Assembly: GCA_022072505.1 (NCBI GenBank) | Contig: JAJVHU010000022.1 | Span: 87,603-151,602 of the forward strand | Length of the DNA stretch: 64,000 nucleotides | Reading direction: 5' to 3' | From: Phycisphaerae bacterium | GTDB lineage: Bacteria > Planctomycetota > Phycisphaerae > UBA1845 | In this document: in pieces, positions 203 to 30,486 of the stretch | Layout: every line of letters starts with the position of its first letter | How positions within the stretch are numbered: position 1 is the stretch's first letter | Translations under genes and position numbers: made by a program | The notes under the pieces: generated by a model | Told to the model about the DNA's origin: nothing | Seen by the model: only the letters and a program-made list of their open reading frames with translations | Database searches by the model: none

Positions 203-1057
203 TCAGACCGGCGTCCCGTCCGCATGTGACGCTTCCGACGGGGGAGCGGGCGCCTCGCCCACGGTGACCAGCAGCGGCATCAGCAGGTTGATCTTGCGCT
301 GGCGGACCCCGACGAACCCCGCCTGCTCGAAAAGACGGCGCACGAGCGACCACGGCGCGTGATGCACGTTCTTCTCGATCCGCTGGATGATGACGTCGAA
401 GACGAACCAGCCGACGGCGTTGTCCCGGAATCCGTCGATGAGCACGAGCCTCCCGCCGGGGGCGAGCACGCGGCGCATCTCGCCGACGACGGCGTCCTGA
501 TGCGGGTAATGATGAAACGAGTTCGAACACGTCACCACGTCGAACGACCCGTCCGCAAAAGGCAGATGCTCGCTGTCGGCGTTGACCACGTCCGCCGGGC
601 GGTCCGGGCGCACGCGCTCCGCCTTGTCGCGGGCCTTGCGGCACATGCTGGGCACGAAATCCAGCGCCGTGATCCTCGCCGGCCAGTCCGCCGAGGCGAC
701 CAGGGCCGCGAACGAACCGGTTCCGCAACCGATGTCCAGCAGGCGGAAGGGCTTCGGCTCGCCGCCGCACCACTCCGCGATCTCCCCCAACAGCGCCAGG
801 TACGCGGGACGGAACAGGAACGTATTCAGCAGGGATCGATCGTAGGTCTCCGCCCAACCGTGAAACTGGCGATCGGCCCCGGAACGAAACGCATGCGCCC
901 GGCGCCTGGCGTCGTCGGACCCCGAACCGGCGACCGAGGCGCCGTGCGCTGGAGCGGTGGCGCTGGGCGCGGCGGGGGAGATGGGCGCGGCAGTGGCGCT
1001 GGGCGCGGCGTCTTCCTGCGGCGGCGATGAGGTGGAGTTCGGATTGACCACGATCAT
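203..1057 (-). CDS. Class I SAM-dependent methyltransferase (UbiE/Methyltransf_11-like)
   Basis: Motifs LLDIGCGTGSF, ITALDFVPSM, LPFADGSFDVVTC, RVLAPGGRLVLID. Start placed at ATG 1057 behind GAAGAGG; ORF track start 1159 is probably too far upstream. Confidence 0.85.
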   Translation of the reverse strand: MIVVNPNSTSSPPQEDAAPSATAAPISPAAPSATAPAHGASVAGSGSDDARRRAHAFRSGADRQFHGWAETYDRSLLNTFLFRPAYLALLGEIAEWCGGEPKPFRLLDIGCGTGSFAALVASADWPARITALDFVPSMCRKARDKAERVRPDRPADVVNADSEHLPFADGSFDVVTCSNSFHHYPHQDAVVGEMRRVLAPGGRLVLIDGFRDNAVGWFVFDVIIQRIEKNVHHAPWSLVRRLFEQAGFVGVRQRKINLLMPLLVTVGEAPAPPSEASHADGTPV

Positions 1058-1269
1058 GACGACCTCTTCGCGCGCCCCGACGCCCCGACCTTTGAACCCT
1101 CGTCCCGTGCCTCCGGCGCCATCAGCCGCCCGGATGAAACGCCGCGGAACACGGAGCAAACCCGCGCAAGGGGCTTCAGGAACGTGAACCGACCGATGAG
1201 TCTATCCGCACGCATGCCTCTCGCCGAGGGCCTCCAGCCCAACGCGGCGAACCTCGGGGTCAGATAGCG

Positions 1270-1590
1270 CTATTCAATCTCGATCTGATAGCTGACGACC
1301 CACGGTTCCAACTGCTCCAGGCGGACCTTCCAACGGTCCTTGTATTCTTTGACCCAGTTCCGGTTTTCATCAGAATCGGGGACGTCGACGACCACGCGGA
1401 CAAGGTCATCGCGGTAGGTGACGCTACCCTGACGCCAGTGCCCTTCGACTTTTTGTGTTTCGTAGCTTGCCGCCCCAAATCGCCCCACGATTTCGAGCAC
1501 GGCTTCGGCAAGCCACTCCGCCGGAACTTCCCTCCCGTCGTTAAACCGAAGTGGAAGCAGAACCTCGAACCGCCGCCAACTGCTGTTCTT
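1270..1590 (-). pseudogene. Small TA-like hypothetical protein lacking a start codon (AAG where ATG expected)
   Basis: Coherent frame NSSWRRFEVLLPLRFNDGREVPAEWLAEAVLEIV...VSYQIEIE*; no usable start; AAG at 1590-1588. Confidence 0.55.
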
Positions 1591-1762
1591 AGGTCGCTTT
1601 TCCCTTGACCAGGAACGTGATGTTCTCCCCCGCAAGCGCTTCCAACGCCGCTTCCGGAACCAGGTGCTCCCCGGACTGGGTGACACGTCCCGAGAATCGT
1701 CCGAGGAGGAAGCCCAGCGCTCGTTTCTCCGTGTCTCGATCAGGGAATGTTATGGTGACCAT
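1541..1762 (-). pseudogene. Small partner protein of the 1270 ORF, truncated by TAA at 1591-1589
   Basis: ATG 1762 with GGAGAGG upstream; MVTITFPDRDTEKRALGFLLGRF...VKGKAT*; frame continues EQQLAAVRGSASTSV* to 1541. Confidence 0.55.
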
Positions 1763-1842
1763 TGTTCGCCTTGCCTCTCCGGACATTCTCCACACCGCGT
1801 CTCGCAAGATCGTTTCGGACGTTTCCGGCCCGACCCGCGAAG

Positions 1843-1851
1843 ATTATACCA
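1843..1851 (-). promoter_or_regulatory. Extended -10 promoter element TGGTATAAT
   Basis: Perfect TGnTATAAT on minus strand, about 80 nt upstream of ATG 1762 and just downstream of a gcdH-end copy. Confidence 0.5.
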
Positions 1852-1870
1852 CGAGCGCCATGAGATTGCC

Positions 1871-2028
1871 TCAAAACGCCCCATGCCGCGTGATCTCCCG
1901 GCCCACGATGAGCCGGTGAATCGACTCCGTCCCTTCATACGTAATGACGCTCTCCAGGTTCAGCGCGTGGGGGATGGGGCAGCATTCGATGCTGATCCCC
2001 CCGCGTCGAGCAACTCCCGCGCGTCGCG
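1871..2028 (-). repeat. Copy of the last 53 codons of gcdH (8063-8221) with a 1-nt deletion
   Basis: Direct alignment; encodes ...[39 protein letters not shown]. Confidence 0.95.
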
Positions 2029-2039
2029 TTACAGGATCA

Positions 2040-2258
2040 TCAGGAGCTTGTCGGCGTCTTAAGCAAACTCCCGGCCACGTTCTGAACCTTTCTTATCGCC
2101 TCGCGATCGTAGACTCGTTCGCCGCACACGGGGCATTCGTAGAACTCGACGCCGGAAACCGAATAGGGTTCCCCGCATCGTTCGCCTTGTACGGTTTTCT
2201 TGACTGCGCGAATGCGCGAACTTCCGCAGGTCGGGCACTCTTTGATTTTGATCCTCAT
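2040..2258 (-). CDS. YgiT/MqsA-type zinc-finger antitoxin-like protein
   Basis: CPTCG ... [10 protein letters not shown] motif pair; lies downstream of a DUF4258-like gene. Confidence 0.75.
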
Positions 2259-2267
2259 GCTGTTTTT

Positions 2268-2579
2268 TCACTCGCTACGCTTCGAGGAAATCAGAAAGTA
2301 ATATACGTCGGCCTCCGCATGTCGGACAATCTTGCCCTTGGTGTAGATGGCCATCCCCCCAAGATTGGTGCCTTCGATGACATACAGGTATTCGCGCCGG
2401 TGAGTCCGGCGGGAACTCGTTGAGCGAAGTCGTTTATGAATCGCCACGGCGTTAACGATCGCTTCCACCACGTCCAGCTCGGTCAGGCCGTCGGCATCCA
2501 TCTCAAGCCGGGCCTTCTCGCTGAAAGCGTATCTTCCGGTCAGCACGAGTCGTTTGATTGTAACAAGTGTGTCGGCCAA
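2268..2579 (-). CDS. DUF4258-like (RelE-fold-type) putative toxin
   Basis: YAFSEKARLEMDADGLTELDVVEAI pattern and pairing with YgiT-type zinc finger; probable TTG start at 2579. Confidence 0.6.
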   Translation of the reverse strand: MADTLVTIKRLVLTGRYAFSEKARLEMDADGLTELDVVEAIVNAVAIHKRLRSTSSRRTHRREYLYVIEGTNLGGMAIYTKGKIVRHAEADVYYFLISSKRSE

Positions 2580-2614
2580 AGTCGCGTCCCCGCAAGCACA
2601 CGGTGCGCCGCGCT

Positions 2615-2750
2615 TCAAAACGCCCCATGCCCGGTAATCTCCCGGCCCACGATGAGCTGGTGGATCGACTCCGTTCCCTCATACGTGATCACGCTCTCCA
2701 GGTTCAGCGCATGCCGGACCGGGCGGCATTCGATGCTGATGCCGACGGCG
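2615..2750 (-). repeat. Copy of the last about 45 codons of gcdH
   Basis: Direct alignment; encodes [44 protein letters not shown]. Confidence 0.95.
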
Positions 2751-2940
2751 CGGATTCCGTCTGTTCCGCAGCGGATCGAGCTTCCCTAAGTTTTTCCGCG
2801 AGGATGAGCGCGAGTTCCGGGCATTTCTCGATCTCGGCCTGCACCCGTCGCTGACGGTCCTCAGGGTCGGCCTTGACCCGTTCGCTCCCGAGACGATCCC
2901 TGATGGCTCGAAGCGTGGCAACATAACTCTTCTCAGTCAT
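2704..2940 (-). CDS. Small hypothetical protein whose 3' end runs into the gcdH-end copy
   Basis: ATG behind GAGGG; helical charged sequence; last 15 or so codons read the gcdH copy out of frame. Confidence 0.4.
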
Positions 2941-3013
2941 CCCTCGATCACCCCCACCGGAGTGTCAGTAGCGATCGCAAACGCTATCCATCGGCAGGAT
3001 GCGCCCGCGCAAC

Positions 3014-3214
3014 TCACTTGGTTCGCGTATTTGGCGCGGGTTCCGGGGCTTGACCGTGATCCTCCTTGGCCCGGCGCAGGGCTTCCAGGAACCGAGCACT
3101 GCCCTCCTGGAAGAATTCGATCTCCTCCTGCGGCGTCATGCCTCGTACTCGACGGCGGATTTCCTCCTGTGCCTTTCGTTTCATGTCCACGCAATCAAAC
3201 GTCTTCGTCTTCAT
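3014..3214 (-). CDS. Small antitoxin-like hypothetical protein
   Basis: MKTKTFDCVDMKRKAQEEIRRRVRGMTPQEEIEFF; start overlaps end of PIN gene. Confidence 0.65.
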   Translation of the reverse strand: MKTKTFDCVDMKRKAQEEIRRRVRGMTPQEEIEFFQEGSARFLEALRRAKEDHGQAPEPAPNTRTK

Positions 3215-3668
3215 ATTCAATGACCTCCGCAGGGGAGCGGATCTCCACCGCCCGATATCCATGAAGCTGATTGACCGCATTATACATGCGGGCCTTGTCG
3301 ATATGAACGATGTGCCGGAAGTTCCAGCTTACGATCAGGTCGGCTCCGCCGACCACTGCGGAAGCCACATGAGCGGCGTCATCCGCGGATTTGACGCCCA
3401 GGATGCCCGCTTTGAGGTACGCATCGCGCAGGGCCATCACTTCCCGTGTAAAGGCAACAAACGTCATCAAATGCAATTGTTGATCGAAAAAACCGCGAAC
3501 GTGGTCAGGCGCCCGTTCGATCTCCCGACGAAGCACGTCGGAGACCAGCAACCGGAACCGTCCGCCACCCGCCAGATTGAAGAATGATCGACTCGCCTCC
3601 GAAAACTCCTCGTCGAAGACGCCTCCATAAACGGAAGTATCGGCATAAGTCACAAGCCCCAGCTTCAC
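3195..3668 (-). CDS. PIN-domain (VapC-like) ribonuclease
   Basis: YADTSV ... E ... DDAAHVASA ... IVSWNFRH acidic PIN motifs. Confidence 0.8.
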   Translation of the reverse strand: MKLGLVTYADTSVYGGVFDEEFSEASRSFFNLAGGGRFRLLVSDVLRREIERAPDHVRGFFDQQLHLMTFVAFTREVMALRDAYLKAGILGVKSADDAAHVASAVVGGADLIVSWNFRHIVHIDKARMYNAVNQLHGYRAVEIRSPAEVIEYEDEDV

Positions 3669-3906
3669 GTCGATAGGTCTCCGAGCGTAAACCCCGAATC
3701 AGGGCCTTCCTCAAGGGGTCTTGGCACTGAAGAACAACCTCGCCATCAAGAATCCTCGCGGCGTAGCGCATGGGAGTTGGCGCCGGTCCAGCGTACTCGC
3801 CAAGTTGCGACGCCCCGATGGGCATCCTCCCGCTCGCGGCAAACACGGCCTCGCCGAGCGAGACCGCGCCACCCGACCGCAACGAGTTTGCATGGAGGCA
3901 ACCGGG

Positions 3907-4581
3907 TCACCACTCGTAGCCTTGGTCCTCCGCGATCGCATACAAAGTTATCATGCCGATGAGCAGCATGGTGACGCGGTTGTATCCCGACGCATCACCT
4001 GATTGCCGAGCCTCGTTTTGCTGTTTCGCGAGTTCACCCAGGAAAGGCATGGCCGGCAGAGCTTCTTCATATCTCTTGTTCCACTCCGCAGTCGTACCAC
4101 CTGTTTCTGCTACCACGAGAGAGGTAAATCGTTCGATGAACGAGCGCGAGTCGATCCGGCTAAAAAACTCTCGCAATTCCATTTTCGGTTTCTCCCGCAT
4201 TTGGGTTCTTGCCCAGGACGTAAACGACTCTTTGTTAAGATTCCCCTCCGCAAGCCGCCTGATCATAGGCTCGGCTTCGTCAGGCGTGGCGTCGAACGCC
4301 CAGCCGTTGTCGGCGAGGAAGGCGATCATCGCCGCCGTCGCCGCGCGCTTGTTACCGTCCACGAAAGGATGATTCATGCAGACGTGGAACGCGTACGCCG
4401 CCGCCATGGCCTGAATGTCCGGGTGGAGGTATGCGCCGGCGAATTGCTGTCTGGGCATGGCCATCGCCGACTCCAATCCCCCACGATCGCGAATGGATGG
4501 GTTACCCCCCTGATCTTCGATGGCAATGGCGTGGAGCGCCAGAATATCCTCGATGGCCAGGAAGCGCGGGCCGGCGTTCAC
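3907..4581 (-). CDS. Fic/Doc (death-on-curing) family toxin with C-terminal extension
   Basis: Fic motif HPFVDGNKRAA; N-terminal IRDRGGLESAMAMP typical of Doc. Confidence 0.85.
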   Translation of the reverse strand: MNAGPRFLAIEDILALHAIAIEDQGGNPSIRDRGGLESAMAMPRQQFAGAYLHPDIQAMAAAYAFHVCMNHPFVDGNKRAATAAMIAFLADNGWAFDATPDEAEPMIRRLAEGNLNKESFTSWARTQMREKPKMELREFFSRIDSRSFIERFTSLVVAETGGTTAEWNKRYEEALPAMPFLGELAKQQNEARQSGDASGYNRVTMLLIGMITLYAIAEDQGYEW

Positions 4582-4790
4582 TTGGCGAGCCTTCGCATCA
4601 ATTCGCCGTGCTTTCCGAACACTTCACGCACATGCCGATCCAGACGCGCGGAATCGCAACCCGGCAGGAGCCGAGCATGGAGGTATCGGATGTAGGCTGA
4701 AAGCGACAGGTTCAGTTTGGCGGCCTCAGTTTCGAGTTGACGCCGAAGCTCCGGCGTCGCCTGGAACTGGATGGTTTCCGTGGTGGACAT
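4578..4790 (-). CDS. Ribbon-helix-helix-type antitoxin
   Basis: IQFQATPELRRQLETEAAKLNLSLSAYI; 4-nt overlap with Doc gene. Confidence 0.65.
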   Translation of the reverse strand: MSTTETIQFQATPELRRQLETEAAKLNLSLSAYIRYLHARLLPGCDSARLDRHVREVFGKHGELMRRLAK

Positions 4791-4884
4791 CTCGTTTAGT
4801 CTGCCCCTAAATTATCTGAAAATCAAGCCTCGCGCCCCTCTGGCCGGAATGATCCCGCCGCGTTCCCTTCCTCGTGGGGCTGGT

Positions 4885-4950
4885 TTATTCTAGCCTCCTG
4901 ATTCCACGCACGCCACGTTCATCCATCCCGATCCCCCCAAACGCCCCTCT
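4885..4950 (-). repeat. Degenerate copy of gcdH stop region + leader + first codons of brnT
   Basis: Shares ACGCACG...CGTTCATCCA...AAACGCCCC with 8026-8075; encodes MRGIRRLE* vs MRRIRRLEW of brnT. Confidence 0.6.
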
Positions 4951-5110
4951 ACCTCGTGATCTGGCGGTCGCGACGGGCCTCATGGCGAAGAAATTTAAAA
5001 CGTCGAGGCGACGACCCGACCTACGAAGACTGAATAAACCTCAAAGTGTCGGCTCATGACTCGACCCACGAAGACTTGATCCGGACGGTTCGCAACGTTG
5101 GCTCGATCGT

Positions 5111-5884
5111 TCAAAGCCATGGCATGCGGGTCTTGTCCAAGCTTCCATCGTCTCGGATGAAATCCGCGTGGTTTATGCAAATGCTAGCTTTATGGCCATC
5201 ACCGCCAGCTTCATACACGAAGCCACAGACATTCCAATCCTGTTGCCCGCTCTTCTGATAGAATGCCATGCAACCACTCATTCCGCTTAGAGAACCGAAG
5301 TCCGCCAAATGAGGGTTCGCTTTCCGAATGCGACGTTCGAGTTGCTCGTCGACGAGCATTACCTGACGGTCTGAAACGCTGGACACGAAATCACAGATCG
5401 CGGTCAGTCGACACTCAAGTCCCCTTTTCGAGACTTCTCGGTGCAATTCCGGAAATCCGACGAGAAACACGATGTCTCCCTTGCTTGGACGAGGTGGCGG
5501 CCAGCCGCCAGGCCGATAGAAGTGCTTTCCCCCTTTCTCGATTCTCTCGATGAAATGAGTATCCGGGAATTCGAGGACCGCCAAGTCGACGCCCAATTCC
5601 CTGACGACACAAGCCGACGAAATATCGAGCGGTCGCTGCTCCGACCCACATGTCACCGCTAGAATTGCGGCTGGGTTGTTCCGCCGCTCGTGTTCAAAGG
5701 CATCGATGACGTGGGAGTTTGTAATCAGCAGCTTTTTCACGCCCGTGTGAAGAAACGAAATCGTGCCATTCCGCAGCGCGCTTTCCGCCCCTTCCTTGTT
5801 GCGAAGGATAAGGGCCATGCCAACATACGGGCTGAATAGCGATATCCCCTTCTCCATTTTGGACATAAACTGATTGTCGTCCAC
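5111..5884 (-). CDS. Stand-alone trypsin-like serine protease
   Basis: Triad motifs in order: LITNSHV (His), VDLAVL (Asp), GMSGC (Ser). Probable GTG start at 5884 behind AAGGA. Confidence 0.6.
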   Translation of the reverse strand: MDDNQFMSKMEKGISLFSPYVGMALILRNKEGAESALRNGTISFLHTGVKKLLITNSHVIDAFEHERRNNPAAILAVTCGSEQRPLDISSACVVRELGVDLAVLEFPDTHFIERIEKGGKHFYRPGGWPPPRPSKGDIVFLVGFPELHREVSKRGLECRLTAICDFVSSVSDRQVMLVDEQLERRIRKANPHLADFGSLSGMSGCMAFYQKSGQQDWNVCGFVYEAGGDGHKASICINHADFIRDDGSLDKTRMPWL

Positions 5885-5889
5885 GATTG

Positions 5890-6102
5890 TTATTCCTTGA
5901 CCATTCGTCGGTTCTCGATCGACCGAACGATGTCGTCCAAGGTCAGAGGGTCGAGCCACTGATGCCGTTCCGCCGTGTAGTCACCGCGCCCGGGGTCGAA
6001 CATCCGCAGGAACCGGATCATGCCGGCCGGGCCCAGTCGTTCGTTCAGGGCCTCCAGTCCGGCGCGACGGACTTCGGGGTCGGATAGAACTGGATGGGTC
6101 AT
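5890..6102 (-). CDS. Small antitoxin-like protein
   Basis: EVRRAGLEALNERLGPAGMIRFLRMFDPGRGDYTAERHQWL; ATGA overlap with PIN pseudogene stop. Confidence 0.7.
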   Translation of the reverse strand: MTHPVLSDPEVRRAGLEALNERLGPAGMIRFLRMFDPGRGDYTAERHQWLDPLTLDDIVRSIENRRMVKE

Positions 6103-6523
6103 AATCCAATCACCTCTGTTATCCATTGAACTGGATTCTCAACGCGAACGGACAGTTTACCTCTCATGCGCTTGGCCAACTTCAGCAGAGAATCATCCGT
6201 GGTCAGGAAAACCTCGCAGGCCGAATTCTCGGAACACGCAACATGGAGCGCGTCCATCGGCCCGAACCCATCGGCGACGAGCTTTCCGGCGCGTTTCACG
6301 ATCGAATCCGACAATGTCGCGTTTTCATCGGCCAGCGGAGTAAAGCCAAGACCTTGCTTCGTCGCTCCTCGTCCGGGTTCGCATTGATTTCCCGCAGCAC
6401 GGCGTCACTGACAATCCAGATGAGTTTCCCTTTCTGCGCGAGACGAAAGATCGACTCAACGGCATCGCTTTCCACGCGAATTCGTTCCTACGACTGATCG
6501 TCGAAGGGTCGGCTCAGGCAGCA
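6099..6523 (-). pseudogene. PIN-domain toxin pseudogene
   Basis: CCLSRPFDDQS*ERIRVE...DALHVAC...FLTTDD; no start, in-frame TAG at 6490-6488, frameshift near 6340. Confidence 0.8.
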
Positions 6524-6571
6524 CGGATCGGGCAGCATTCGATGCTGATCCCGCCGGCGCCGAGCAGGTCG
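6524..6571 (-). repeat. 48-bp internal fragment of the gcdH 3' region
   Basis: Matches about 8163-8210 with one silent change (GGC to GGG). Confidence 0.9.
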
Positions 6572-6592
6572 GGAGCTTTGGTCTGCGCGCCA

Positions 6593-7468
6593 TCAGATGC
6601 GGTCACTCCGCGGGTACACCAGGTTCATCGATCGGTTCAGGTCCGGATGCTCATCGAGAATCCGCCCGGTTACGTATTTGATCCAAGTTCCAAGAACGAA
6701 TCGCCGTTCCTTGTTCCACGAGTGCTGAATCGCAACAAGTCGAACCTGCTTCGGCGACCAGCCGCCAAGGGCAGAGGACTTCGGGTCGGCGATTCGCCAA
6801 ATCCCACAACCGCTTACACCGTGGATTCTGGGCAAGCGCACGCCAGTACCGCTTTTGATTTCAACCCCATCCTGAGTAAAGTTCAGCGCGACGTGCACGT
6901 TGGGATCGAAGATAGAATCAACTTGAAAACTCCCTTCATAAGGGGTCGAGAAATAAGCCAAGGGCTTCTCCGCGACACCGGTCGGGCAACCGGTCGTCCA
7001 TGCCCGCGGATAGCCCACGATCATGTACCAACCTTGACCGTCGTCGTTGTGACCAACCCGGTCATGACGAAGAAATGCCTTCGTGGCCTTGAGGTGCTCG
7101 ACGGTCTCGAGGTCCAACTCGATGGCGCAGATATCGCGTGCTGATCGCTTGGAAGCCTCGGTGCCACGAAACCAGCACTCGGGCCCGCACAAGGGGACTG
7201 GCAATGAGTCGAGTTCGCCCCTCGAGACGTAGAGAGGAATCTGAGCATTGATTGCGTCTGCGAAAGTACGTCCGTCGTCTCCGACGTGGGAAGCCGTTAG
7301 GATGAAGTGGCGATCAGCAATGGCGTACAGCACGCCACTGCGATCGTGTCTGACTTGATCATCCTGAACGGTCCAGATGCCAACCGTATGTCGTTCGATG
7401 CCGGGAAGGCACTCGGTTTCAATCTTCTTGATAAAAGCGGTCATTCGTGGAAATGTTTCTTGTGACAT
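6593..7468 (-). CDS. Stand-alone trypsin-like serine protease
   Basis: ILTASHV (His), RDICAIEL (Asp), GVSGCGIW (Ser); ATG 7468. Confidence 0.6.
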   Translation of the reverse strand: MSQETFPRMTAFIKKIETECLPGIERHTVGIWTVQDDQVRHDRSGVLYAIADRHFILTASHVGDDGRTFADAINAQIPLYVSRGELDSLPVPLCGPECWFRGTEASKRSARDICAIELDLETVEHLKATKAFLRHDRVGHNDDGQGWYMIVGYPRAWTTGCPTGVAEKPLAYFSTPYEGSFQVDSIFDPNVHVALNFTQDGVEIKSGTGVRLPRIHGVSGCGIWRIADPKSSALGGWSPKQVRLVAIQHSWNKERRFVLGTWIKYVTGRILDEHPDLNRSMNLVYPRSDRI

Positions 7469-7505
7469 CCTTGACTCTTCAGAACTTCGAGAATTGGACC
7501 GCAAT

Positions 7506-7757
7506 TCATCCGATCTCCGTCAACCGCTCCTTCAACCATCGCTGCACAAGCCTCTGCGGCGTCGTGCGTCGTCGCTTGGCTTCCAACAGCACGCGACGCC
7601 ACACAGCGCTGCCGAGTTCGATCACTCCGTTCTCGGGTCGCACGAACACTGTTGAGGTGTCCTCTTCCAGTTCGTCCAGGAACTCTGTCACCTCGTGCCC
7701 GTCCCAGAAAGCGGCCTCTTCGGCTTCGGATTTGAACTTTGGGATTTTGGATTTCAT
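7506..7757 (-). CDS. brnA: BrnA/CopG-family antitoxin
   Basis: IPKFKSEAEEAAFWDGH motif; ATGA overlap with brnT. Confidence 0.7.
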   Translation of the reverse strand: MKSKIPKFKSEAEEAAFWDGHEVTEFLDELEEDTSTVFVRPENGVIELGSAVWRRVLLEAKRRRTTPQRLVQRWLKERLTEIG

Positions 7758-8032
7758 CGTTGTGTACTCCGCCTTCGGTAATATCGCTTTTCCTTGTCGG
7801 TCATATTCCGGGCCGTAATGCACCGCGCTAGTCCGTGGGCTTTGAATCGCAGAACGACGACAAGATGCCGCCCGGCGTGCGTCTGTCCAAGTGCAACGTG
7901 AGATCCCTGCCGGGATCGCACGAGCATCGGGCGCGCGAAACAAACTTCCTCCACCTCCTCGGGTGAAACGCCGTGCCGGGCGATGTGCTCCTCATTATGC
8001 TCATCCCATTCAAGGCGACGTATTCTACGCAC
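7754..8032 (-). CDS. brnT: BrnT-family ribonuclease toxin
   Basis: EWDEHNEEHIARHGVSPEEVEE ... GQTHAGRHLVVV ... ITARNM. Confidence 0.85.
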   Translation of the reverse strand: MRRIRRLEWDEHNEEHIARHGVSPEEVEEVCFARPMLVRSRQGSHVALGQTHAGRHLVVVLRFKAHGLARCITARNMTDKEKRYYRRRSTQR

Positions 8033-8062
8033 GATTGGCCTCGTTCATCCAGAAGCGGGTTC

Positions 8063-9226
8063 TCAAAACGCCCCATGCCCGGTAATTTCCCGCCCCACGA
8101 TAAGCTGGTGAATCGACTCCGTGCCCTCATACGTGATCACGCTCTCCAGGTTCAGCGCGTGGCGGATCGGGCAGCATTCGATGCTGATGCCGCCGGCGCC
8201 GAGCAGGTCGCGGGCGTCGCGGGCGACGTCGAGGCCCATGCGGACGCAGTGCCACTTCGCCAGCGACACCTGCGAATGGTGCATCGTGCCGGCGTCCTTG
8301 AGTCTGCCAAGTTGCAGGCACAGGAACTGCGACGTGGTGATCTGCCGCACCATGTCCGCCAGGCGCACCTGGATGAGCTGCTTGCGGTCCAGCGTCGTCC
8401 CGAACAGCACGCGCTGCCTGGCGAACTCGAGGCACTCGCGGTAGCAGGCCATCGCCGCGCCGATGCCGCCCCACGCGATGCCGTACCGCGCCTGCGTCAG
8501 GCACCCCAGCGGCGCGCCCAGCCCCTCCGCTTTCGGCAACCGGTTTGCATCCGGCACTTTCACATTGTCGAAGAACAGCTCGCTGGTGATCGAGGCGCGC
8601 AGCGAGAACTTGTGCGGGATGTCGCGCGTGGTGTATCCCGGCATGCCCTTTTCCACGATGAATCCACGAATGCCGTCGTCCGTCGCCGCCCAGACGATCG
8701 CCAGGTCCGCCAGCGAACCGTTGGTGATCCACATCTTCGCGCCGCTGATGACCCAGTCGCCGCCCTTTTTCACCGCCCGCGTCTTCATCGTGCCGGGGTC
8801 CGATCCGCCGTCCGGCTCCGTGAGTCCGAAGCAGCCGATCTTCCGCCCCTTGGCCATCTCGGGCAGGAAGCGCTCTTTCTGCTCCGGCGATCCGTAGGCG
8901 TGGATCGGATACATGCACAACCCGGACTGCACGGAGGCGAAGCTGCGCACGCCGCTGTCGCCGCGCTCCAGCTCCTGCATGATGAGTCCGTAGGCGACGT
9001 TGTTGAGGCCCGCGCAGCCGTAATCGGTGAACGTCGGTCCGAAGAGGCCCATCTCGGCCATCTCGGGCACGAGGTCCATCGGGAAGCGCTCCTTTTCGAA
9101 GCACTCGCCGATGATCGGCAGCACGCGCTCGTCCACCCAGCGGCCGACGGTGTCACGCACCTGGCGCTCGTCGTCGGTGAGGCAGGCGTTGAAGTCGAAC
9201 AAGTCCGGTTGTTTCGTATCAGGCAC
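8063..9226 (-). CDS. gcdH: Acyl-CoA dehydrogenase, glutaryl-CoA dehydrogenase-like
   Basis: GCFGLTEPDGGSDP, GAKMWITN, C-terminal TYEGTESIH; 387 aa. Confidence 0.85.
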   Translation of the reverse strand: MPDTKQPDLFDFNACLTDDERQVRDTVGRWVDERVLPIIGECFEKERFPMDLVPEMAEMGLFGPTFTDYGCAGLNNVAYGLIMQELERGDSGVRSFASVQSGLCMYPIHAYGSPEQKERFLPEMAKGRKIGCFGLTEPDGGSDPGTMKTRAVKKGGDWVISGAKMWITNGSLADLAIVWAATDDGIRGFIVEKGMPGYTTRDIPHKFSLRASITSELFFDNVKVPDANRLPKAEGLGAPLGCLTQARYGIAWGGIGAAMACYRECLEFARQRVLFGTTLDRKQLIQVRLADMVRQITTSQFLCLQLGRLKDAGTMHHSQVSLAKWHCVRMGLDVARDARDLLGAGGISIECCPIRHALNLESVITYEGTESIHQLIVGREITGHGAF

Positions 9227-9249: not shown

Positions 9250-9267
9250 CGCGGGATTCATCCCGCG
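9250..9267. repeat. REP-like hairpin CGCGGGAT-TC-ATCCCGCG
   Basis: Perfect 8-bp stem in the intergenic region upstream of gcdH. Confidence 0.5.
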
Positions 9268-9275
9268 CGATCTTT

Positions 9276-9442
9276 CCGAGCCGCGCCCGTCAGGAAGCGG
9301 TTACGCGCCTAAGACGCTGTTTCAAAACCGAGCCGCGCCCGTCAGGAAGCGGTTACGCGCTAAGACGCTGTTTCAAAACCGAGCCGCGCCCGTCAGGAAG
9401 CGTTCTTTTTCCCATCGGCACCGGCGGTTTTGCAACAGCGTC
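9276..9442. repeat. REP-like unit x3 nested in a MITE-like element with 15-bp terminal inverted repeats
   Basis: CCGAGCCGCGCCCGTCAGGAAGCG at 9276, 9328, 9379; GACGCTGTTTCAAAA (9364-9378) and TTTTGCAACAGCGTC (9428-9442) are 14/15 inverted. Confidence 0.75.
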
Positions 9443-9660
9443 CAAGTCCGAGCCCCGTATCGGGTACGTCCTCTCTCCGAGAGGACGATTGCGCGCGCCG
9501 CAAACCAGCGATTCCACCCGTCCTCATCGCATTGAAGAACCGCTCCTCGTCCAGGCGAGTCACGCACTTCACGTTCGCAGCGCCGACAGGGCCTCTCGGA
9601 GAGAGGCCCTACCCCGCCCGCGCCCGTCCCTCGCGTTCTCCGGCGCCGACCCCGCATCAC

Positions 9661-11901
9661 TCATCCCAAACGGTCGAGCCATGATTGTACAAGGTCGCGC
9701 TCTCGCTTCATCCCGATCCGGGCGAAGAGATCCCGCGCCTGCGTCCAGAGCGTTCGCGCCGCGTCCAGGTTCCCGCGCGTCAGTTCGATCGCCCCCAGGT
9801 TGCCGTACTGGATGGCCATGCCCTCCAGCCGGCCGAGCTTCTCCTCGATGGCCAGCGCCTCCTTAAGGTAGGTCTCCGCCGCGTCGAGGTTCCCGCGCGT
9901 CAGTTCGATCACCCCCAGGTTCCCGTACTGGTTGGCCATACCCTCCAGCCGGCCGAGCTTCTCGTCGATGGCCAGCGCCTTCTTGACCCAGGCCTCCGCC
10001 GCGTCGAGGTTCCCGCGCGTCCGCTCGATCAGCCCCAGGTTGCCGTACTGGTTGGCCATGCCCTCCAGCCGGCCGAGCGTCTCGTTGATGGCCAGCGACT
10101 TCTTGTGGTAGGCCTCCGCCGCGTCCAGGTTCCCGCGCGTCTGTTCGATCAGCCCCAGGTTGCCGTACTGGTTGGCCATGCCCTCCAGCCGGCCGAGCTT
10201 CTCCTCGATGGCCAGCGCCTCCTTAAGGTAGGTCTCCGCCGCGTCGAGGTTCCCGCGCGTCAGTTCGATCAGCCCCAGGTTGCCGTGCTGGATGGCCATG
10301 CCCTCCAGCCGGCCGAGCTTCTCGTCGATGGCCAGCGCCTTCTTGACCCAGGCCTCCGCCGCGTCGAGGTTCCCGCGCGTCCGCTCGATCAGCCCCAGGT
10401 TGCCGTAGCTGTCGGCCATCCCCTCGAGCCGGCCGAACTTCTCTTCGATAGCCAGCGACTTCTTCTGGTAGGCCTCCGCCGCGTCCAGGTTCCCGCGCGT
10501 CTTTTCGATCACCCCCAGGTTGCCGTACGCGTTGGCCATGCCCTCCAGCCGGCCGAGCTTCTCCTCGATGGCCAGCGCCTCCTTAAGGTAGGTCTCCGCC
10601 GCGTCGAGGTTCCCGCGCGTCAGTTCGATCACCCCCAGGTTCCCGTAGCTGTCGGCCATCCCCTCCAGCCGCCCGAGCTTCTCACTGATGGCCAGCGATT
10701 TCCTGAGGTACGCCTCCGCCGCGTCCAGGTTCCCGCGCGTCCCTTCGATCAGCCCCAGGTTGCCGTAGGCAACGGCACGCGCAGCGTCATCGAGCGCCAG
10801 TTGCAGCACCCGCTGATAGCTGGCTTCTGCCCCGGACAGGTCTCCTTGGAGCCTTAAAATGTGTCCGCGGCGGTTGATGGCGTCGAGGTCGTTGGGAACC
10901 ACGGAGAGGATGATGTTGAGTGAACGCTCCGCCTGGTCGATCTCCCCGACGAGATAGGCCCACTCGGCGATCTGTCGGTGCAAATCGAGGGTCTGGGCCT
11001 GCGGCTGCGCTACGAGATCCAGGAGAGCCTCCACGATGGCCTTTCCGCCGCGCTCCTTGAGGGAGTTGACCAAACCCGCCGCATCCTTGACGGCCATCAG
11101 GCCCGCCGCCAGTCGTTCCGCCGCTTCGCGCGCCGATCGCTCCTGGGCAAGCTGCTCGGAGTATTTCCTTTCAAGCTCGTCCGTAAGTCGTCGGCGCAAC
11201 TTATCCTCGCTGAGCTTCTCGCGCCGCGCATGTTCCAGCAGTTCGGCCAAGGCCGCGCCGTGCTCCCGCTGTCCGGTCTTGATATCCGCCAGTGCCGCGC
11301 CTTGCTCCCGCTGTCCGGTCTTGATATCCGCCAGGGCGGCGTTGACCTTCGCGAGTTCAGTGCGCAGGGCAGTCATACCGTCCTTCAGCTCGGCGACGGT
11401 TTCGGGCATGGCCGAGAGGCATTTCTTGAACTCATCGAAGTTGTCGGTGAGCAACTGCTCGATGTGTACGAGCAGGTTGTAGTGCGTCTCGCCCTGGTTC
11501 TGGATTGCTTTAAGAAACTCCTCGTTCGCGGCGTCGCGATGGCGCATCGCTTCGTCGAGCAGGGCGATGCGCTTGAACAAGCCCTCGCCGGTGAATTGGA
11601 GCTGAAAGCCGAGGGCCTCAAGCTCCTTCTCGGCGTGGGCGGAACGCTTGCGGAGGATGTTCAGCGCGGCTTGTTGCTTTTGATTGTCCCGCGCGTCCTT
11701 CTTCTGCCCCTTCCAGGACAGCCCGAGGAAACCGAGGATGCAGCCCCCGGCCAGCGCGATGGGGAACCCGCCGCCTGCGGCAGCGCCGGCGATTGCTCCT
11801 GTCGTGGCGATGTCCGATGCGGTCTGCCACAACCCGTTGGCGGCGAGGTTGTTGAGCAACCCCTTGACGCAGTCCAGGGAACATGCGACGGCGTGCTTCA
11901 T
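9661..11901 (-). CDS. Tetratricopeptide-repeat protein with N-terminal hydrophobic segment and coiled coil
   Basis: Nine near-identical 40-aa units GNLG.IE.TRGNLDAAE....LAI.EKLGRLEGMA. Confidence 0.9.
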   Translation of the reverse strand: MKHAVACSLDCVKGLLNNLAANGLWQTASDIATTGAIAGAAAGGGFPIALAGGCILGFLGLSWKGQKKDARDNQKQQAALNILRKRSAHAEKELEALGFQLQFTGEGLFKRIALLDEAMRHRDAANEEFLKAIQNQGETHYNLLVHIEQLLTDNFDEFKKCLSAMPETVAELKDGMTALRTELAKVNAALADIKTGQREQGAALADIKTGQREHGAALAELLEHARREKLSEDKLRRRLTDELERKYSEQLAQERSAREAAERLAAGLMAVKDAAGLVNSLKERGGKAIVEALLDLVAQPQAQTLDLHRQIAEWAYLVGEIDQAERSLNIILSVVPNDLDAINRRGHILRLQGDLSGAEASYQRVLQLALDDAARAVAYGNLGLIEGTRGNLDAAEAYLRKSLAISEKLGRLEGMADSYGNLGVIELTRGNLDAAETYLKEALAIEEKLGRLEGMANAYGNLGVIEKTRGNLDAAEAYQKKSLAIEEKFGRLEGMADSYGNLGLIERTRGNLDAAEAWVKKALAIDEKLGRLEGMAIQHGNLGLIELTRGNLDAAETYLKEALAIEEKLGRLEGMANQYGNLGLIEQTRGNLDAAEAYHKKSLAINETLGRLEGMANQYGNLGLIERTRGNLDAAEAWVKKALAIDEKLGRLEGMANQYGNLGVIELTRGNLDAAETYLKEALAIEEKLGRLEGMAIQYGNLGAIELTRGNLDAARTLWTQARDLFARIGMKRERDLVQSWLDRLG

Positions 11902-14730: not shown

Positions 14731-16578
14731 GTGTCCTTCGATCCCGTCCAGCTTGTGCGAGGGCTTGTTCCGATCCTGCATCGGGAGCGGGACTTCATCG
14801 TCGTGGGGAAGCCGGCGGGCGTGGACGTCGGGCAGTTGCCGGGGTTCGACGCGCCCGGACTGGCTGAGCTCCTGCCGCGGATTTATCCGGATGAAACCTT
14901 CGGGGAGCCGGTGAACCGGCTTAGTCGTTACGAATCCGGGGTATTGATTTTCTCCTCGAACGAAGGATTCCGGGAGGGCATCCGGTCTTCCTGGAACGCG
15001 GAGAAGGTCAGGCAGGATGTCGTCGTCGTGGTGCGCGGGCGGATGAAAAAACGTTCATACACGTTGAGATCGCCGGTCAGAGAGGCGGTCTTGGACGGGG
15101 CGGCGAGCGAGAGGGCAATTCCCGGCAGGAAGGGAAAAACGGAGGTTCGGCGAGCCGTCGCGTCCGGCCGGACCCGAACCGCGGGATCGAAAGTGAAGGG
15201 TTCCGCCGAGACGGCGCCATCCGGGGCGCGGATCGATGTCGAAGCGCTTCACGTCGGGGACCGGCGCTGCGTGGTCCGGTGCCGGACGGCAATGCGGTCG
15301 ATGCATGCGCTCAAGGCCGGTCTGCGGGCGGCGGGGCTTCACCCGCTGGGCGACACACGCGGAGGAACGCGGGGCTTGCGCGACCGTCCGGAACGGGCGT
15401 GCGTTCACTTGAGGCGCGTCGTTTTTGAACACCCGGGGACGCGGCGGACGGTGACGCTGATCGCCCCGGACCCGCCGGGGTTCGCGGAAGTCGCGGACGG
15501 CGTCGAACCGCTGGAGCGGGTGTTTGACAAGGCGCTCGCGCGGCGGATCGAGTGCCTCTTGGATGACACCACCGACGCGTTCCGCGTGCTGTGCGGGGAC
15601 GCGGAGGGTCTGCCGGGCGTCAACATCGACAAGTTCGCCGACGTGATGGTGATTCATCTGCTTGACGGACGGAACACGCCGAACCGCGCCACGCGCGTGG
15701 CGCTGGCCCGACTCCTGCATCGGACGTTCGGCGCGTCCGCCGTGTATCAGAAGATTGCGCCGAAGGACCGCTCGCATCTGCTGGCGGAGGAGGCGGAAGC
15801 GCTGGTGACGGATCGGCCGCTTGCGGGACGGTCGACGGACCCGATCGTTTGCGTGCGTGAGCAGGGGTTGTGCTTCGAGGCGCATCCGCTGGATCCGCTG
15901 GCGGTCGGGATATATCTCGATCACCGTCAGAACCGGGCGCGCGTGCGCGAGCTGTCGGCGGGGAAGCGCGTCCTCAATCTTTTTGCGTACACCTGCGGAT
16001 TCTCCGTCGCGGCGGCCGCGGGGGGCGCGGCGGAAGTCGTCAGCGTGGATCAATCCCGGAAGGCGCTGGCGTGGGGGAAGATCAACTTCGCCCTGAACGG
16101 GCTGATTTCGCCGCCGGAAGCGGCGGCGTCGGAGACGAACGACGGCGACGGCCCGGTCGGCGTCTCGGCGGCGTCGAAGGAAACCCCCGGCGATGATCCC
16201 TCCGCGCCGCGCGCCCGGTACGCTTTCTATCCGGACGAAGTGTTCGAGTTTCTTCGCCGCGCCGACCGGCGTGCGCGAAAGTTCGATCTGATCATTCTGG
16301 ATCCGCCGACGTTCGCCCGGATGAAGAAGCCGAAGCGGGAGTTCCACGTCGAGAAGGATCTCCCCGAGTTGATCCGCGAGTCGCTTCCGCTTCTCGATAA
16401 GGGGGGCACGCTCTTCGTATCAACGAATTACCGGGCGATGTCGGGGGCGAAACTGGTGGAGTTGATCCGGGCCGGCGCCCGGTCGCGGAAGCTGCGGATC
16501 CTGTCCGCGCCCTCTCTGCCCGCGGATTTCGCACCGGACCCGCACCATCACAAAGCCGTGCTCCTTCGGGCGGATTAA
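14731..16578 (+). CDS. Fusion of RluA-like pseudouridine-synthase domain (degenerate) and RlmI/RlmK-like SAM rRNA methyltransferase
   Basis: N-term VVGKPAG, NRLSRYESG; C-term GIYLDHRQNR, VLNLFAYTCGFS, FDLIILDPPTF. Confidence 0.75.
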   Translation: MSFDPVQLVRGLVPILHRERDFIVVGKPAGVDVGQLPGFDAPGLAELLPRIYPDETFGEPVNRLSRYESGVLIFSSNEGFREGIRSSWNAEKVRQDVVVVVRGRMKKRSYTLRSPVREAVLDGAASERAIPGRKGKTEVRRAVASGRTRTAGSKVKGSAETAPSGARIDVEALHVGDRRCVVRCRTAMRSMHALKAGLRAAGLHPLGDTRGGTRGLRDRPERACVHLRRVVFEHPGTRRTVTLIAPDPPGFAEVADGVEPLERVFDKALARRIECLLDDTTDAFRVLCGDAEGLPGVNIDKFADVMVIHLLDGRNTPNRATRVALARLLHRTFGASAVYQKIAPKDRSHLLAEEAEALVTDRPLAGRSTDPIVCVREQGLCFEAHPLDPLAVGIYLDHRQNRARVRELSAGKRVLNLFAYTCGFSVAAAAGGAAEVVSVDQSRKALAWGKINFALNGLISPPEAAASETNDGDGPVGVSAASKETPGDDPSAPRARYAFYPDEVFEFLRRADRRARKFDLIILDPPTFARMKKPKREFHVEKDLPELIRESLPLLDKGGTLFVSTNYRAMSGAKLVELIRAGARSRKLRILSAPSLPADFAPDPHHHKAVLLRAD

Positions 16579-16660
16579 GACGCCGCTGCTTCACCGAGCC
16601 GCGCCCGTCAGGAAGCGTTCTTTTTCCCGTCTGCACCGGCGGTTTCGCAACCGCGTCTAA
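16576..16660. repeat. Second copy of the REP/MITE-like element, flanked by TAA on both sides
   Basis: TAA-GACGC...CCGAGCCGCGCCCGTCAGGAAGCG...TTTCGCAACCGCGTC-TAA; aligns with 9361-9445. Confidence 0.7.
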
Positions 16661-17020
16661 GTCAAAGGACGCCCGTGTGTCGGACGTCCACCCTCCCGGG
16701 CGACCGCCCGGTCAGCAGTTCTTTCACCCGCCGCCGCCGCGCCGCAGCACCAGCCAGAGGAACACGCCCAAGACCGCCACGAGAATGACCTGACCCGCCG
16801 TATCCATCGAAGTCCTTTATATGCCGGAATCAGCGGCAAGTCGCGTGCCGGACCGCGCTGCCCGGCGAACGACGCGATTATTTTGAATTTTTCGCGGAAA
16901 TCCGGATGCCGCAACTCTCTGAGCGGTTATGATGGGTGCAAGGGGACCGCCCGGGTCGAAACCTTCGACTTGCGGCGGGTAAGACGGGTCGTTCGATCAT
17001 GCCGTGGTGGGAGGTCAATT

Positions 17021-22777: not shown

Positions 22778-23023
22778 ATGCGGAGCTTAAGGAAGGAGAA
22801 AGTAGTCGCTACCAGAAAACGACGACGCGAGGTCGCGGAGGAGATGGAGGCTTTGCGATCGGCGCAACGCAACCAGCGCTTCGCGGCAGCGTGGCGCATG
22901 TCTGAGTTGACGCACTACATTCAAACCGGGCAGTGCGCAATGCCGCGCCTGGATCGGAGCGTCGCATCTTTGTGGAAACGTACGCCACGGGGGCGGCGGC
23001 TTATCCGGCGGATCTCCTTATGA
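22778..23023 (+). CDS. Small basic hypothetical protein
   Basis: Open frame; stop overlaps (ATGA) the ATG of the nuoD 5' copy. Confidence 0.45.
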   Translation: MRSLRKEKVVATRKRRREVAEEMEALRSAQRNQRFAAAWRMSELTHYIQTGQCAMPRLDRSVASLWKRTPRGRRLIRRISL

Positions 23024-23142
23024 CCACTGCCACCACCATCCCGCCCGAACCGTCTACATTCGCCCCGGAGGAACCCGGCGGCGATTTGTGGACGCCGCAC
23101 TTGGGCCCGTGGTGCCCGGCGACGCATACCGCCCCGCCCCGG
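23020..23142 (+). repeat. Abandoned copy of the first about 40 codons of nuoD
   Basis: MTTATTIPPEPSTFAPEEPGGDLWTPHLGP vs MTTATYNPPEPSTFAPEEPGGDLWTLNFGP at 23573. Confidence 0.95.
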
Positions 23143-23229
23143 GTGCATGGTCGCGGCGTGGAGAGTGTCATTCCGCGTCGCGGGAATAGCGTAACACAGT
23201 TGGTTCAGGCGTATCGGAGTTGAGTCGCG

Positions 23230-23427
23230 ATGATCGCGTACAAGACCATTGCCACACTCTCGAAAGACCATTCCGTCACGCTCGAAGCGTTGCCGTTCTC
23301 GGCGGGTGAACAGGTGGAGGTCATTCTTCTTGCGAGAACACCCGGCAACGGCGAGCCGACCTTCCCGCTGCGTGGTCGGCCTGTGAAATATGTGAACCCG
23401 ACAGACCCTGTCGGGGAAAAGGATTGA
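23230..23427 (+). CDS. Small antitoxin-like protein, possibly C-terminally truncated
   Basis: VTLEALPFSAGEQVEVILL...PLRGRPVKY..PTDPV pattern. Confidence 0.6.
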   Translation: MIAYKTIATLSKDHSVTLEALPFSAGEQVEVILLARTPGNGEPTFPLRGRPVKYVNPTDPVGEKD

Positions 23428-23441
23428 GGACGGGTTGTCCG

Positions 23442-23552
23442 CGTGATCCGGTGGACCAGCTCATTGCGGCGACGGCGCGAATCCACGGATGTGAGCTTGC
23501 AACAGTGGATAACCGGATCATTCGCAGCGGCGTGGTACAAACGCTGAGGTGA
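23442..23552 (+). pseudogene. C-terminal remnant of VapC/PilT PIN toxin
   Basis: RDPVDQLIAATARIHGCELATVDNRI; N-terminal two-thirds absent. Confidence 0.75.
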
Positions 23553-23572
23553 AGAACGAGACGGCATAAATC

Positions 23573-29607: not shown

Positions 29608-29618
29608 GGACAAACTCG

Positions 29619-29843
29619 ATGACGGTGATCAACGGACATTTTGACGGAAGGAATGTCGTTTTGGATGAACCCGTGCCGCCCGGGATTCCGCCGCTGACGC
29701 CTGTAAAGGTCATGTTCGAGCCGGTTGGCGGCGCGCAGAACATCGTTGCGGAACTTGCGGAACTGGCTGTTTCCACTGATGAACTGCCCGAGGACTACTC
29801 CGAGCAACATGAACATTATGTGAAAGGGACTCCCCGTCGATGA
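29619..29843 (+). CDS. Antitoxin (paralogue of 31339)
   Basis: INGHFDG..VVLDEP ... LPEDYSEQHEHY; ATGA overlap with VapC. Confidence 0.75.
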   Translation: MTVINGHFDGRNVVLDEPVPPGIPPLTPVKVMFEPVGGAQNIVAELAELAVSTDELPEDYSEQHEHYVKGTPRR

Positions 29844-30440: not shown

Positions 30441-30486
30441 GCGCCGGAGGGGGCAGGGATGGCGCTGGCGGGGGGGGGCTTAATGC

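Follow-up and report, generated by a model that had tools for sequence, protein, structure and literature searches.

Downstream of the gene gcdH in an uncultured planctomycete, copies of the gene's own 3' end alternate with small genes mostly of toxin-antitoxin types, and our data suggest that these displaced ends were once parts of working alleles in related lineages. The locus lies in a 64,000-nt stretch of DNA (hereafter the window) from the 4.67-Mb metagenome-assembled genome (MAG) of a Phycisphaerae bacterium (Planctomycetota; assembly GCA_022072505.1, contig JAJVHU010000022.1, positions 87,603-151,602 of the forward strand). The name gcdH follows close homologues of the window protein, which carry the Joint Genome Institute (JGI) label glutaryl-CoA dehydrogenase. 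The array behind its stop codon occupies 1270-8062 (6.8 kb) and holds four gcdH-end copies, counting the live one, with small minus-strand genes between them; GC content is 54-61% across 1200-8000, compared with 66-69% in the flanks. The gene and its repeated ends are as follows:

8063..9226, minus strand: live gcdH, 387 amino acids (aa), acyl-CoA dehydrogenase family (Pfam Acyl-CoA_dh_N, _M and _1, E 1e-25 to 1e-35)
8063..8242, minus strand: live copy of the repeated gcdH 3' end, last ~60 codons plus stop (nhmmer E 9e-62)
6523..6578, minus strand: c3, internal gcdH-end remnant, 56 nt (nhmmer E 3e-13)
2615..2754, minus strand: c2, displaced gcdH 3' end, 140 nt, ending at TGA (nhmmer E 6e-43)
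1871..2028, minus strand: c1, displaced gcdH 3' end, 159 nt, ending at TGA (nhmmer E 5e-44)

These four are exactly the copies recovered when an nhmmer profile built from the live gcdH ends of seven genus members was run on the first 12 kb of the window; c3 lies beyond the positions covered by an earlier note on this DNA. A BLAST search with the live end returned 2615-2754 (E 3e-53) and 1871-2028 (E 1e-48) and no further gcdH-end likeness outside the array locus in the whole genome. An additional eroded copy considered at 4885-4950 was rejected, its alignment score being 44 versus 33.5 +/- 6.4 for shuffled sequences (maximum 59), with no gene-strand nhmmer match there at E < 10. The live end, c1 and c2 all stop at TGA, and homology is gone within 1-2 bases past the stop. 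Measured back from the stop, the copies start at 159, 140, ~155 and 113 nt, a boundary spread of 46 nt; since copy lengths vary in this way, there is no fixed crossover core. Alignment to the live end also places a 1-nt deletion in the 5' part of c1.

The earlier note had counted 10 synonymous and 3 non-synonymous differences between c1 and the live gene over the last 42 codons, and 7 and 2 for c2, and had taken the displaced ends for once functional alleles. Our recount, for which (as for all codon counts) the live end at 8063..8242 served as reference, gave identical figures for both copies: the replacements are R>P, Q>R and G>R in c1 and C>R and I>V in c2, and the copies differ from the live end by 7-10%. 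By the Nei-Gojobori method, dS is 0.45 and dN 0.033 for live versus c1 (dN/dS, or omega, 0.07), and 0.28 and 0.022 for live versus c2 (omega 0.08); the omega of the gcdH body within the genus is ~0.10. A fully neutral model (omega = 1) expects 76% of changes to be non-synonymous and was rejected for both copies (binomial p = 9e-5 for c1, 1e-3 for c2). A second null model, in which the gene's own end is duplicated in place and the copy decays neutrally while the live end stays constrained (omega ~0.5), was also rejected (binomial p = 0.005 for c1, 0.018 for c2), the tests for c1 and c2 having the live sequence in common and not being fully independent.

Differences were then polarised over the last 41 codons of 11 genus sequences, comprising seven live ends and four displaced copies (including those of the related genomes G001 and G003), with each deviation from the genus majority classed as private or shared. 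Every private change is non-synonymous in c1 (three, with no silent ones) and in c2 (two, likewise). Silent departures from the majority number nine in c1, all found in other genus sequences and each in at least one live allele; c2 also has nine, all found in other genus sequences and eight in another species' live allele. The window's live end has no private changes, and its 11 silent departures all occur in other genus sequences. Pooled over the four displaced copies, private changes are 16 non-synonymous to 6 synonymous (73% non-synonymous, close to the neutral 76%), versus 3 to 8 in the seven live ends (Fisher p = 0.024).

The proposal that the displaced ends were once functional alleles is thus borne out, both by the silent excess relative to the two neutral models and by the private changes of c1 and c2, all of them non-synonymous. 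Because the silent excess comes with silent departures that are shared with other genus sequences, most of the divergence is older than the displacement. The pattern indicates that the silent differences already existed between alleles of working genes and were inherited from them; changes since displacement look few and neutral, and the copies look only slightly decayed. Judged by dN, the stranding of c2 and c1 would date back some 0.02-0.03 substitutions per site. Silent divergence between the alleles, at 0.25-0.4, is within the species-level dS of the gene body (0.17-0.64), and a tree of 123 nt places c1 and c2 inside the genus clade (ultrafast bootstrap, UFBoot, 91).

The earlier note further suggested that the live 3' end is itself an import, given that the two copies share three silent alleles (CTC, GGC and GAG) that the live gene lacks. 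We found the same three states in both copies and none in the live gene, but they are merely common in the genus, and the live end is as diverged as the body. CTC is present in 9 of 11 genus sequences, the two exceptions, with CTT, being the window's live end and the displaced copy of G003; GGC and GAG are frequent variants at polymorphic codons, where three genus members have GGG and four have GAA, as the live gene does. Divergence from the window gcdH in the last 126 nt and in the gene body, respectively, is 10.3% and 10.4% for the sister species G004, 11.1% and 10.2% for P0002, and 15.9% and 15.0% for P0003 (last 41 codons versus body of the window gene, Fisher p 0.75-1.0). The whole gcdH is 90% identical to that of G004, and neighbouring core genes are 86-89% identical. 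Breakpoint scans describe gcdH as a recombination mosaic within the genus, with no breakpoint at the repeat boundary of the window gene, and the phylogenetic breakpoint that an imported end would place near 8220 could not be detected, live end and body being equally diverged. The live end of the window gene therefore appears native-looking, congruent with the gene body and with neighbouring genes. The live end of G001 is 15.4% diverged from that of G003, versus 7.9% in the body (p = 0.01), and the end tree places it outside the genus clade; the approximately unbiased (AU) test of genus monophyly gave p = 0.43 on a 123-nt end alignment too short for power. Judging from this live end, twice as diverged as its body, end replacement may have taken place within the genus.

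Between the gcdH ends lie the following genes, listed from the live stop codon towards the left edge of the array and the gene beyond it (open reading frame, ORF):

7754..8032, minus strand: BrnT toxin gene, first cassette gene past the live stop (Pfam BrnT_toxin, 45.6 bits, cut-off 34.5)
7506..7760, minus strand: BrnA (CopG-type) antitoxin gene (Pfam CopG_antitoxin, 38.4 bits, cut-off 28; the match covers residues 66-140 of ORF 7506..7943, the start at 7760 is estimated, and the G001 homologue has 83 aa)
6593..7504, minus strand: gene for a 303-aa protein without family match, directly upstream of c3
6099..6475, minus strand: PIN-domain toxin pseudogene, frameshifted and 5'-truncated (weak Pfam PIN match on ORF 6099..6314)
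5890..6126, minus strand: 78-aa antitoxin-like gene without family match (paralogue with 55% aa identity in the pepT-end array, contig C2)
5111..5959, minus strand: gene for a 282-aa protein (Pfam Trypsin_2, E 0.004, below cut-off)
4578..4790, minus strand: 70-aa ribbon-helix-helix-like antitoxin candidate (weak NikA-like and MbpA matches), overlapping the Fic/Doc start
3907..4581, minus strand: Fic/Doc family toxin gene (Pfam Fic, 66.7 bits, cut-off 24)
3195..3668, minus strand: PIN_3 domain toxin gene (Pfam PIN_3, E 5e-5, just under cut-off; paralogue with 51% aa identity in the argC-end array on contig C11)
2937..3194, minus strand: 85-aa ORF without family match, possible antitoxin by its position beside the PIN_3 gene
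2704..2940, minus strand: 78-aa hypothetical ORF without family match, its 3' end entering c2 in another frame
2040..2618, minus strand: cassette between c2 and c1, with a 116-aa hypothetical ORF (2268-2618) and an MqsA-like candidate (2040-2258)
1270..1870, minus strand: cassette X, 72-aa and 138-aa ORFs, low GC (59-60%)
203..1159, minus strand: S-adenosylmethionine (SAM)-dependent methyltransferase gene (Pfam Methyltransf_11, E 9e-27; GC 69%)

Family matches exceed the curated cut-offs for BrnT, CopG/BrnA and Fic/Doc and fall below them for PIN, PIN_3 and the MqsA-like gene. The last is a zinc-ribbon antitoxin candidate with weak MqsA_antitoxin and Zn_ribbon matches (E 1e-3); the 116-aa ORF beside it has no family match, and most of the small cassette ORFs belong to no family in Pfam (also at E up to 5) or NCBIfam. 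With adjacent small genes and family matches above cut-off, the cargo can be assigned, by sequence criteria, to type II toxin-antitoxin modules. The genes for the 282-aa and 303-aa proteins ride with toxin-antitoxin pairs, and both proteins have a G-x-S-G-C motif, with no significant BLASTP similarity between the two.

The remnant c3 corresponds to live positions 8163-8215, that is, 155 to 100 nt before the stop, and matches live gcdH with one mismatch in 47 nt (98% identity); its last ~100 nt are missing. It adjoins the 5'-truncated PIN gene, whose homology starts at codon ~8 and borders immediately on the mid-part of the copy. The counterpart in G001 runs to the stop; an intact PIN gene, which encodes a 148-aa homologue of the pseudogene, begins 51 nt further on, and c3 is best read as a deletion remnant. 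At the other end of the array, the high-GC core flank is back near base 1200. Left of cassette X, a 41-nt stretch (1227-1267) is 83% identical to 6047-6087 in the 3' end of the 78-aa antitoxin-like gene and is probably a remnant of another lost cassette at the array edge.

Related genomes place this arrangement within one genus. Among 61 of them, more than one gcdH end was found only in the window genome (W), G001 and G003, which are three of the five genus members, and in none of the 56 others; no second gcdH end occurred in ~170 further, more distant loci. G002 represents an empty site, with a live gcdH stop followed directly by a homologue of cassette X and no 6.2-kb array (in BLAST, window 1326-2028 matches G002 137-842 at 78% identity, running on unbroken from the gene end; the G002 contig is 1.7 kb long). 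Junctions are common across species, with neighbouring modules swapped: the 303-aa gene stands next to a gcdH-end copy in both W and G003, with BrnTA upstream in W and a PIN pair in G003. As the homologue in G003 (69% nt identity) lies directly upstream of a displaced copy, in the same position, this junction is shared. A homologous BrnT cassette occupies the same place in G001, and the junction of stop codon and BrnT is common to G001 and the window. The displaced copy in G003 has lost its stop. The sucC end, too, is duplicated in G001 and G003, and the thiolase and OB-fold genes that flank the gcdH arrays of these two genomes are absent from the window genome.

Searches for nearer sequences extended beyond these genomes. 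A metagenome scan with the gcdH protein gave nothing above 81% identity, a genome-contig scan for closer relatives or donors returned mostly distant phyla, and an exact look-up of the window gcdH protein gave no match. Across 14 loci of the three closest proteins (94, 94 and 91% identity), there were no displaced copies and no end close to c1 or c2. The sister species G004 has identical gcdH DNA in ten independent assemblies (L201-L210); from 287 nt past the gcdH stop onwards the assemblies part ways, some continuing into cytochrome bd genes and others into a Vgb_lyase-type gene, and several of the contigs break off at this point. Variable as it is, the spot is of another type than the arrays and has no stranded gene ends.

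Other features were noted on the upstream side of gcdH and within it. Three copies of a unit resembling repetitive extragenic palindromic (REP) sequences or miniature inverted-repeat transposable elements (MITEs) lie ~51 nt apart just upstream of gcdH (window 9257-9448), and an 88-nt copy of the unit lies 7.2 kb off at 16576-16663 (88% identity). A tetratricopeptide repeat (TPR) gene at 9661-11901, between gcdH and a CLC channel gene, is extra in the window relative to G004. The gcdH genes of G003 and G001 contain in-frame insertions at corresponding places, of 105 nt (L039:14446-14550) and 42 nt (L038), respectively. These encode SDPSRDRKGAG-type repeats, and their DNA resembles the REP-like unit CCGAGCCGCGCCCGTCAGGAAGCG of window 9257-9402; it seems that gcdH has absorbed a palindromic repeat element into its coding sequence in both genomes.

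The same design recurs at other genes of the window genome, where an end of sucC, argC, pepT, an M20 peptidase gene, nuoF or nuoD is repeated with small cassettes between the copies:

contig C13, 98438-99708: sucC end array
contig C44, 18669-22093: M20 peptidase gene-end array, four copies
contig C11, 63635-64628: argC end array
contig C2, 14376-15831: pepT end array
window 29307-31270: three copies of the nuoF 3' end, spaced 875 and 796 nt
window 23020 and 23573 (region 23020-23699): duplicate of the nuoD 5' end, 127 nt, 80% identity

The cargo of the four arrays outside the window includes VapC/antitoxin pairs, ParDE-like and RelE-like pairs recognised by eye from ORF translations, and unknowns. 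Paralogues of gcdH cassettes are among it, with a PIN_3 gene behind argC and a 78-aa gene behind pepT, and a BrnT paralogue lies between another direct-repeat pair on contig C48. Differences between copies fall predominantly in one codon phase in sucC (7/7), in the M20 peptidase gene (9/10, 15/22 and 10/14) and in pepT (16/27); the nuoF copies are an exception, with no codon-phase bias. The sucC pair is 96.5% identical, with one difference in nt 1-125 and six in nt 126-180, a cluster that looks like a recombination patch. The displaced sucC end (G000:C13:99483-100007) has lost its stop (TGA>TCA) and lies inside a 174-aa open frame, which may be due to chance in GC-rich DNA or may mean that the fragment is expressed. 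Self-BLAST matches point to many other candidate arrays, including ones on C5, C9, C30, C48, C64, C68 and C70.

Neither recombinases nor site signals accompany these structures. Pfam searches of all ORFs found no integrase, transposase or resolvase in the window array; in the G001 and G003 arrays, neither integrases nor transposases turned up. Tyrosine recombinase (PF00589) has nine matches genome-wide, representing ~7 genes, none of them on the contig of the array (C7); serine recombinase (PF00239) has none in the whole genome. Cassette starts and ends have no motif in common and no shared 8-mers beyond chance, and the array contains no transfer RNA (tRNA) genes or Rfam RNAs. The copies have no attC-like fold, with single-strand z-scores of -1.4, -1.1, -2.1 and +1.4 and no common hairpin.

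We lean, with modest confidence, towards a process in which cassettes are captured without an integrase, through homologous recombination at conserved gene ends, and by which the array would have grown at the gcdH stop codon. With every cassette acquired would have come part of the gcdH 3' end of a different lineage within the genus, and this carried piece would have served as a homology arm for RecA-type recombination. The incoming DNA might have been a circle of gene end and cassette, integrating by a Campbell-type single crossover, or a linear end-cassette-end molecule, integrating by a double crossover in which both arms pair with the recipient's single end. One complete end would stay on the gene, which would keep working, and the others would be stranded between cassettes (c3, c2 and c1), later gaining a few random, mostly protein-altering mutations and indels. 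Their origin in working genes would explain why the stranded ends depart from the live end almost exclusively in silent changes. The toxin-antitoxin cargo would probably guard the cassettes against looping-out between direct repeats. Variable copy boundaries, the absent recombinase, the many target genes and blocks of identity between copies point indirectly to homologous recombination as the joining step, and the identity blocks, 23-35 nt in length, could have been the crossover sites.

Several points weigh against capture from other lineages. No live end nearly identical to c1 or c2 was sampled, the closest differing at 9-12 of 126 nt, and neither a recombination intermediate nor a donor genome was seen. 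Cassettes common with G001 and G003 are more diverged (69-82% nt identity) than gcdH, and no recent transfer was demonstrated among the sampled genomes. The signal is carried by only 41 codons per copy, silent sites are partly saturated in the genus, and the "shared" silent states can include parallel mutation. Furthermore, the model explains neither the origin of the first junction of cassette and gene end of each kind nor the fact that cassettes always start no more than a few bases from the stop. To our knowledge, there is no known natural competence or other DNA-uptake route in the lineage, and the genome is a MAG.

A broader version of this explanation is possible, though tentative: toxin-antitoxin cassettes may be integrase-free mobile units, with a portable piece of a housekeeping gene as their "integration site". 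Such units would loop out, be taken up and be re-inserted by host recombination, and the toxin would punish their loss.

Alternatively, the cassettes may have been inserted in place with long target duplication, after which the live gene was overwritten by diverged alleles through allelic recombination, or the copies were gene-converted, leaving the copies as fossil native alleles. This history seems unlikely to us, even though the architecture is that of known restriction-modification insertions, with stop-spanning repeats, an absence of mobility genes and a relative in which the site is empty (Furuta et al. 2010). Allelic overwriting would be in keeping with the mosaic nature of gcdH within the genus, and the patchy identity of the copies (one versus six differing sites in the two parts of sucC, 98% identity of c3 to the live gene) suggests gene conversion. 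However, each insertion, at least two of them at gcdH, would have to be followed by an additional allelic replacement, and the same would be required at sucC, M20 and pepT, where the copies are third-position-biased even when young (sucC, 96.5% identical, with 7/7 differences in one phase). True target duplication is unlikely because silent-site divergence is present even in this youngest pair, and live gcdH, body and end alike, is diverged to the same degree as neighbouring core genes, with no sign of overwriting.

Tandem accretion of integrase-borne islands at the gcdH 3' end is more doubtful still. The islands would have supplied the gene with a replacement end and later lost the integrase and most of their cargo, and remnants resembling cis-mobilizable elements (CIMEs) would have kept the addictive toxin-antitoxin genes. 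Direct repeats of a gene 3' end, a tandem layout and silent-site divergence are the classic signature of such islands, att-bounded elements without an integrase exist as CIMEs (PMC5704250), and the live end of G001 is more diverged than its body. However, none of the three arrays contains an integrase, even beside the live gene, nor does the contig, and the genome has only ~7 tyrosine recombinases. Units are as small as ~600 nt, the 46-nt variation in copy boundaries comes with no core or arm motif, and the live end of W looks native. At least six other genes have the same structure and would need as many site specificities; many target genes, variable copy lengths and the lack of a recombinase or site motif together make a gene-specific integrase unlikely.

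We consider it very improbable that the displaced copies are still under selection in place, as peptide, regulatory or terminator sequence. The open frame that continues through the displaced sucC fragment after stop loss would fit such a role, but c1 and c2 have no start codon for an ORF of at least 40 aa in the gcdH frame, c1 is frameshifted and c3 truncated, and private changes in displaced copies are non-synonymous in the neutral proportion (73%). Least credible is an assembly artefact, in which sequences of several co-occurring strains, gene ends and downstream regions alike, were joined in a single contig. The genome is a MAG, and many assemblies of the G004 species break shortly past gcdH; however, the copies bear marks of decay unlike strain variants of a working gene (private replacements, frameshift, truncation, stop loss in G003), partial copies start right behind cassette genes, a junction that an assembly-graph bubble would not produce, and homologous junctions recur in the independently assembled G001 and G003.

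If capture on carried gene ends is correct, the arrays are evidence, at the level of sequence, for an ability of small addictive gene pairs to pass between related species without a recombinase of their own, by way of a conserved-gene end that they carry. If, further, the cassettes are mobile units, the stranded ends would be a dated record of successive donors, with the silent layer preserving the donor allele and the replacement layer the time since capture. This two-layer test, which yields the time of stranding and the donor distance, is applicable to any stranded gene fragment, and its split between shared silent and private replacement changes separates imported homology from true target duplication, a distinction left open by the work on restriction-modification units. 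The message for annotators is that partial gene copies beside toxin-antitoxin genes in planctomycete MAGs are real and flag hypervariable sites, at which assemblies are prone to break.

Insertion with long target duplication, which Nobusato et al. reportedly described for restriction-modification units in 2000 (in Gene 259:99), is the nearest described phenomenon, in that a small addictive unit without a mobility gene lies between direct repeats of tens to hundreds of bases, the gene is kept intact and a relative has the empty site. The restriction-modification units have no mobility gene, and their repeats, often spanning a neighbour's stop or start codon, are near-identical to the recipient target, for example at 44/46 or 417/423 positions (PMC2853133). 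Furuta et al. (2010, NAR 38:2428; PMC2853133) proposed, untested, a life cycle in which a unit inserts, amplifies via its repeats and is released. The units of the gcdH array are below 20 kb (0.6-3.7 kb), their repeats above 30 bp (140-159 nt), mobility genes are absent, and G002 has a single gcdH end. However, the repeats are not duplicates of the gene's own target: they differ by 7-10% with an omega of 0.07-0.08, the in-place model was rejected, and their silent states occur in the alleles of other species. Since the repeats differ almost only at silent sites, one of them would have been imported rather than copied. The array also differs in its cargo, which is toxin-antitoxin rather than restriction-modification, in the stacking of units with up to four copies, and in the many genes affected in one planctomycete genome.

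Integrase islands insert at the 3' ends of tRNA, transfer-messenger RNA (tmRNA) or protein genes (e.g. fda in streptococci) and restore the gene end. The gcdH array has in common with them and with CIMEs the displaced 3' end as a boundary, a restored functional gene, tandem accretion and silent-site divergence from different origins. CIMEs are att-bounded without an integrase (review, PMC5704250), whereas here there is no recombinase nearby, no fixed or identical core, units start at 0.6 kb, many unrelated genes are targets and the live end is seemingly native.

Vibrio superintegrons are chromosomal integron arrays with toxin-antitoxin cassettes. Integron arrays and the present one are both one-directional arrays of small promoter-proximal cassettes, rich in toxin-antitoxin genes and with repeats between them. 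However, an IntI integrase is lacking here, the repeats are pieces of housekeeping genes without an attC-like fold, and arrays occur at many gene ends.

The array also fits the general picture of transfer hotspots without mobile elements, for which homologous recombination of the core genes on either side is the proposed driver (Oliveira et al. 2017, Nat Commun 8:841; PMC5635113). Those hotspots, too, have accessory genes beside a core gene, no recognisable mobility genes and homologous recombination as the probable driver. They differ in that two different core flanks exchange and no duplicates arise, whereas at gcdH a single gene end would be carried with each cassette, and stranded copies pile up behind the gene.

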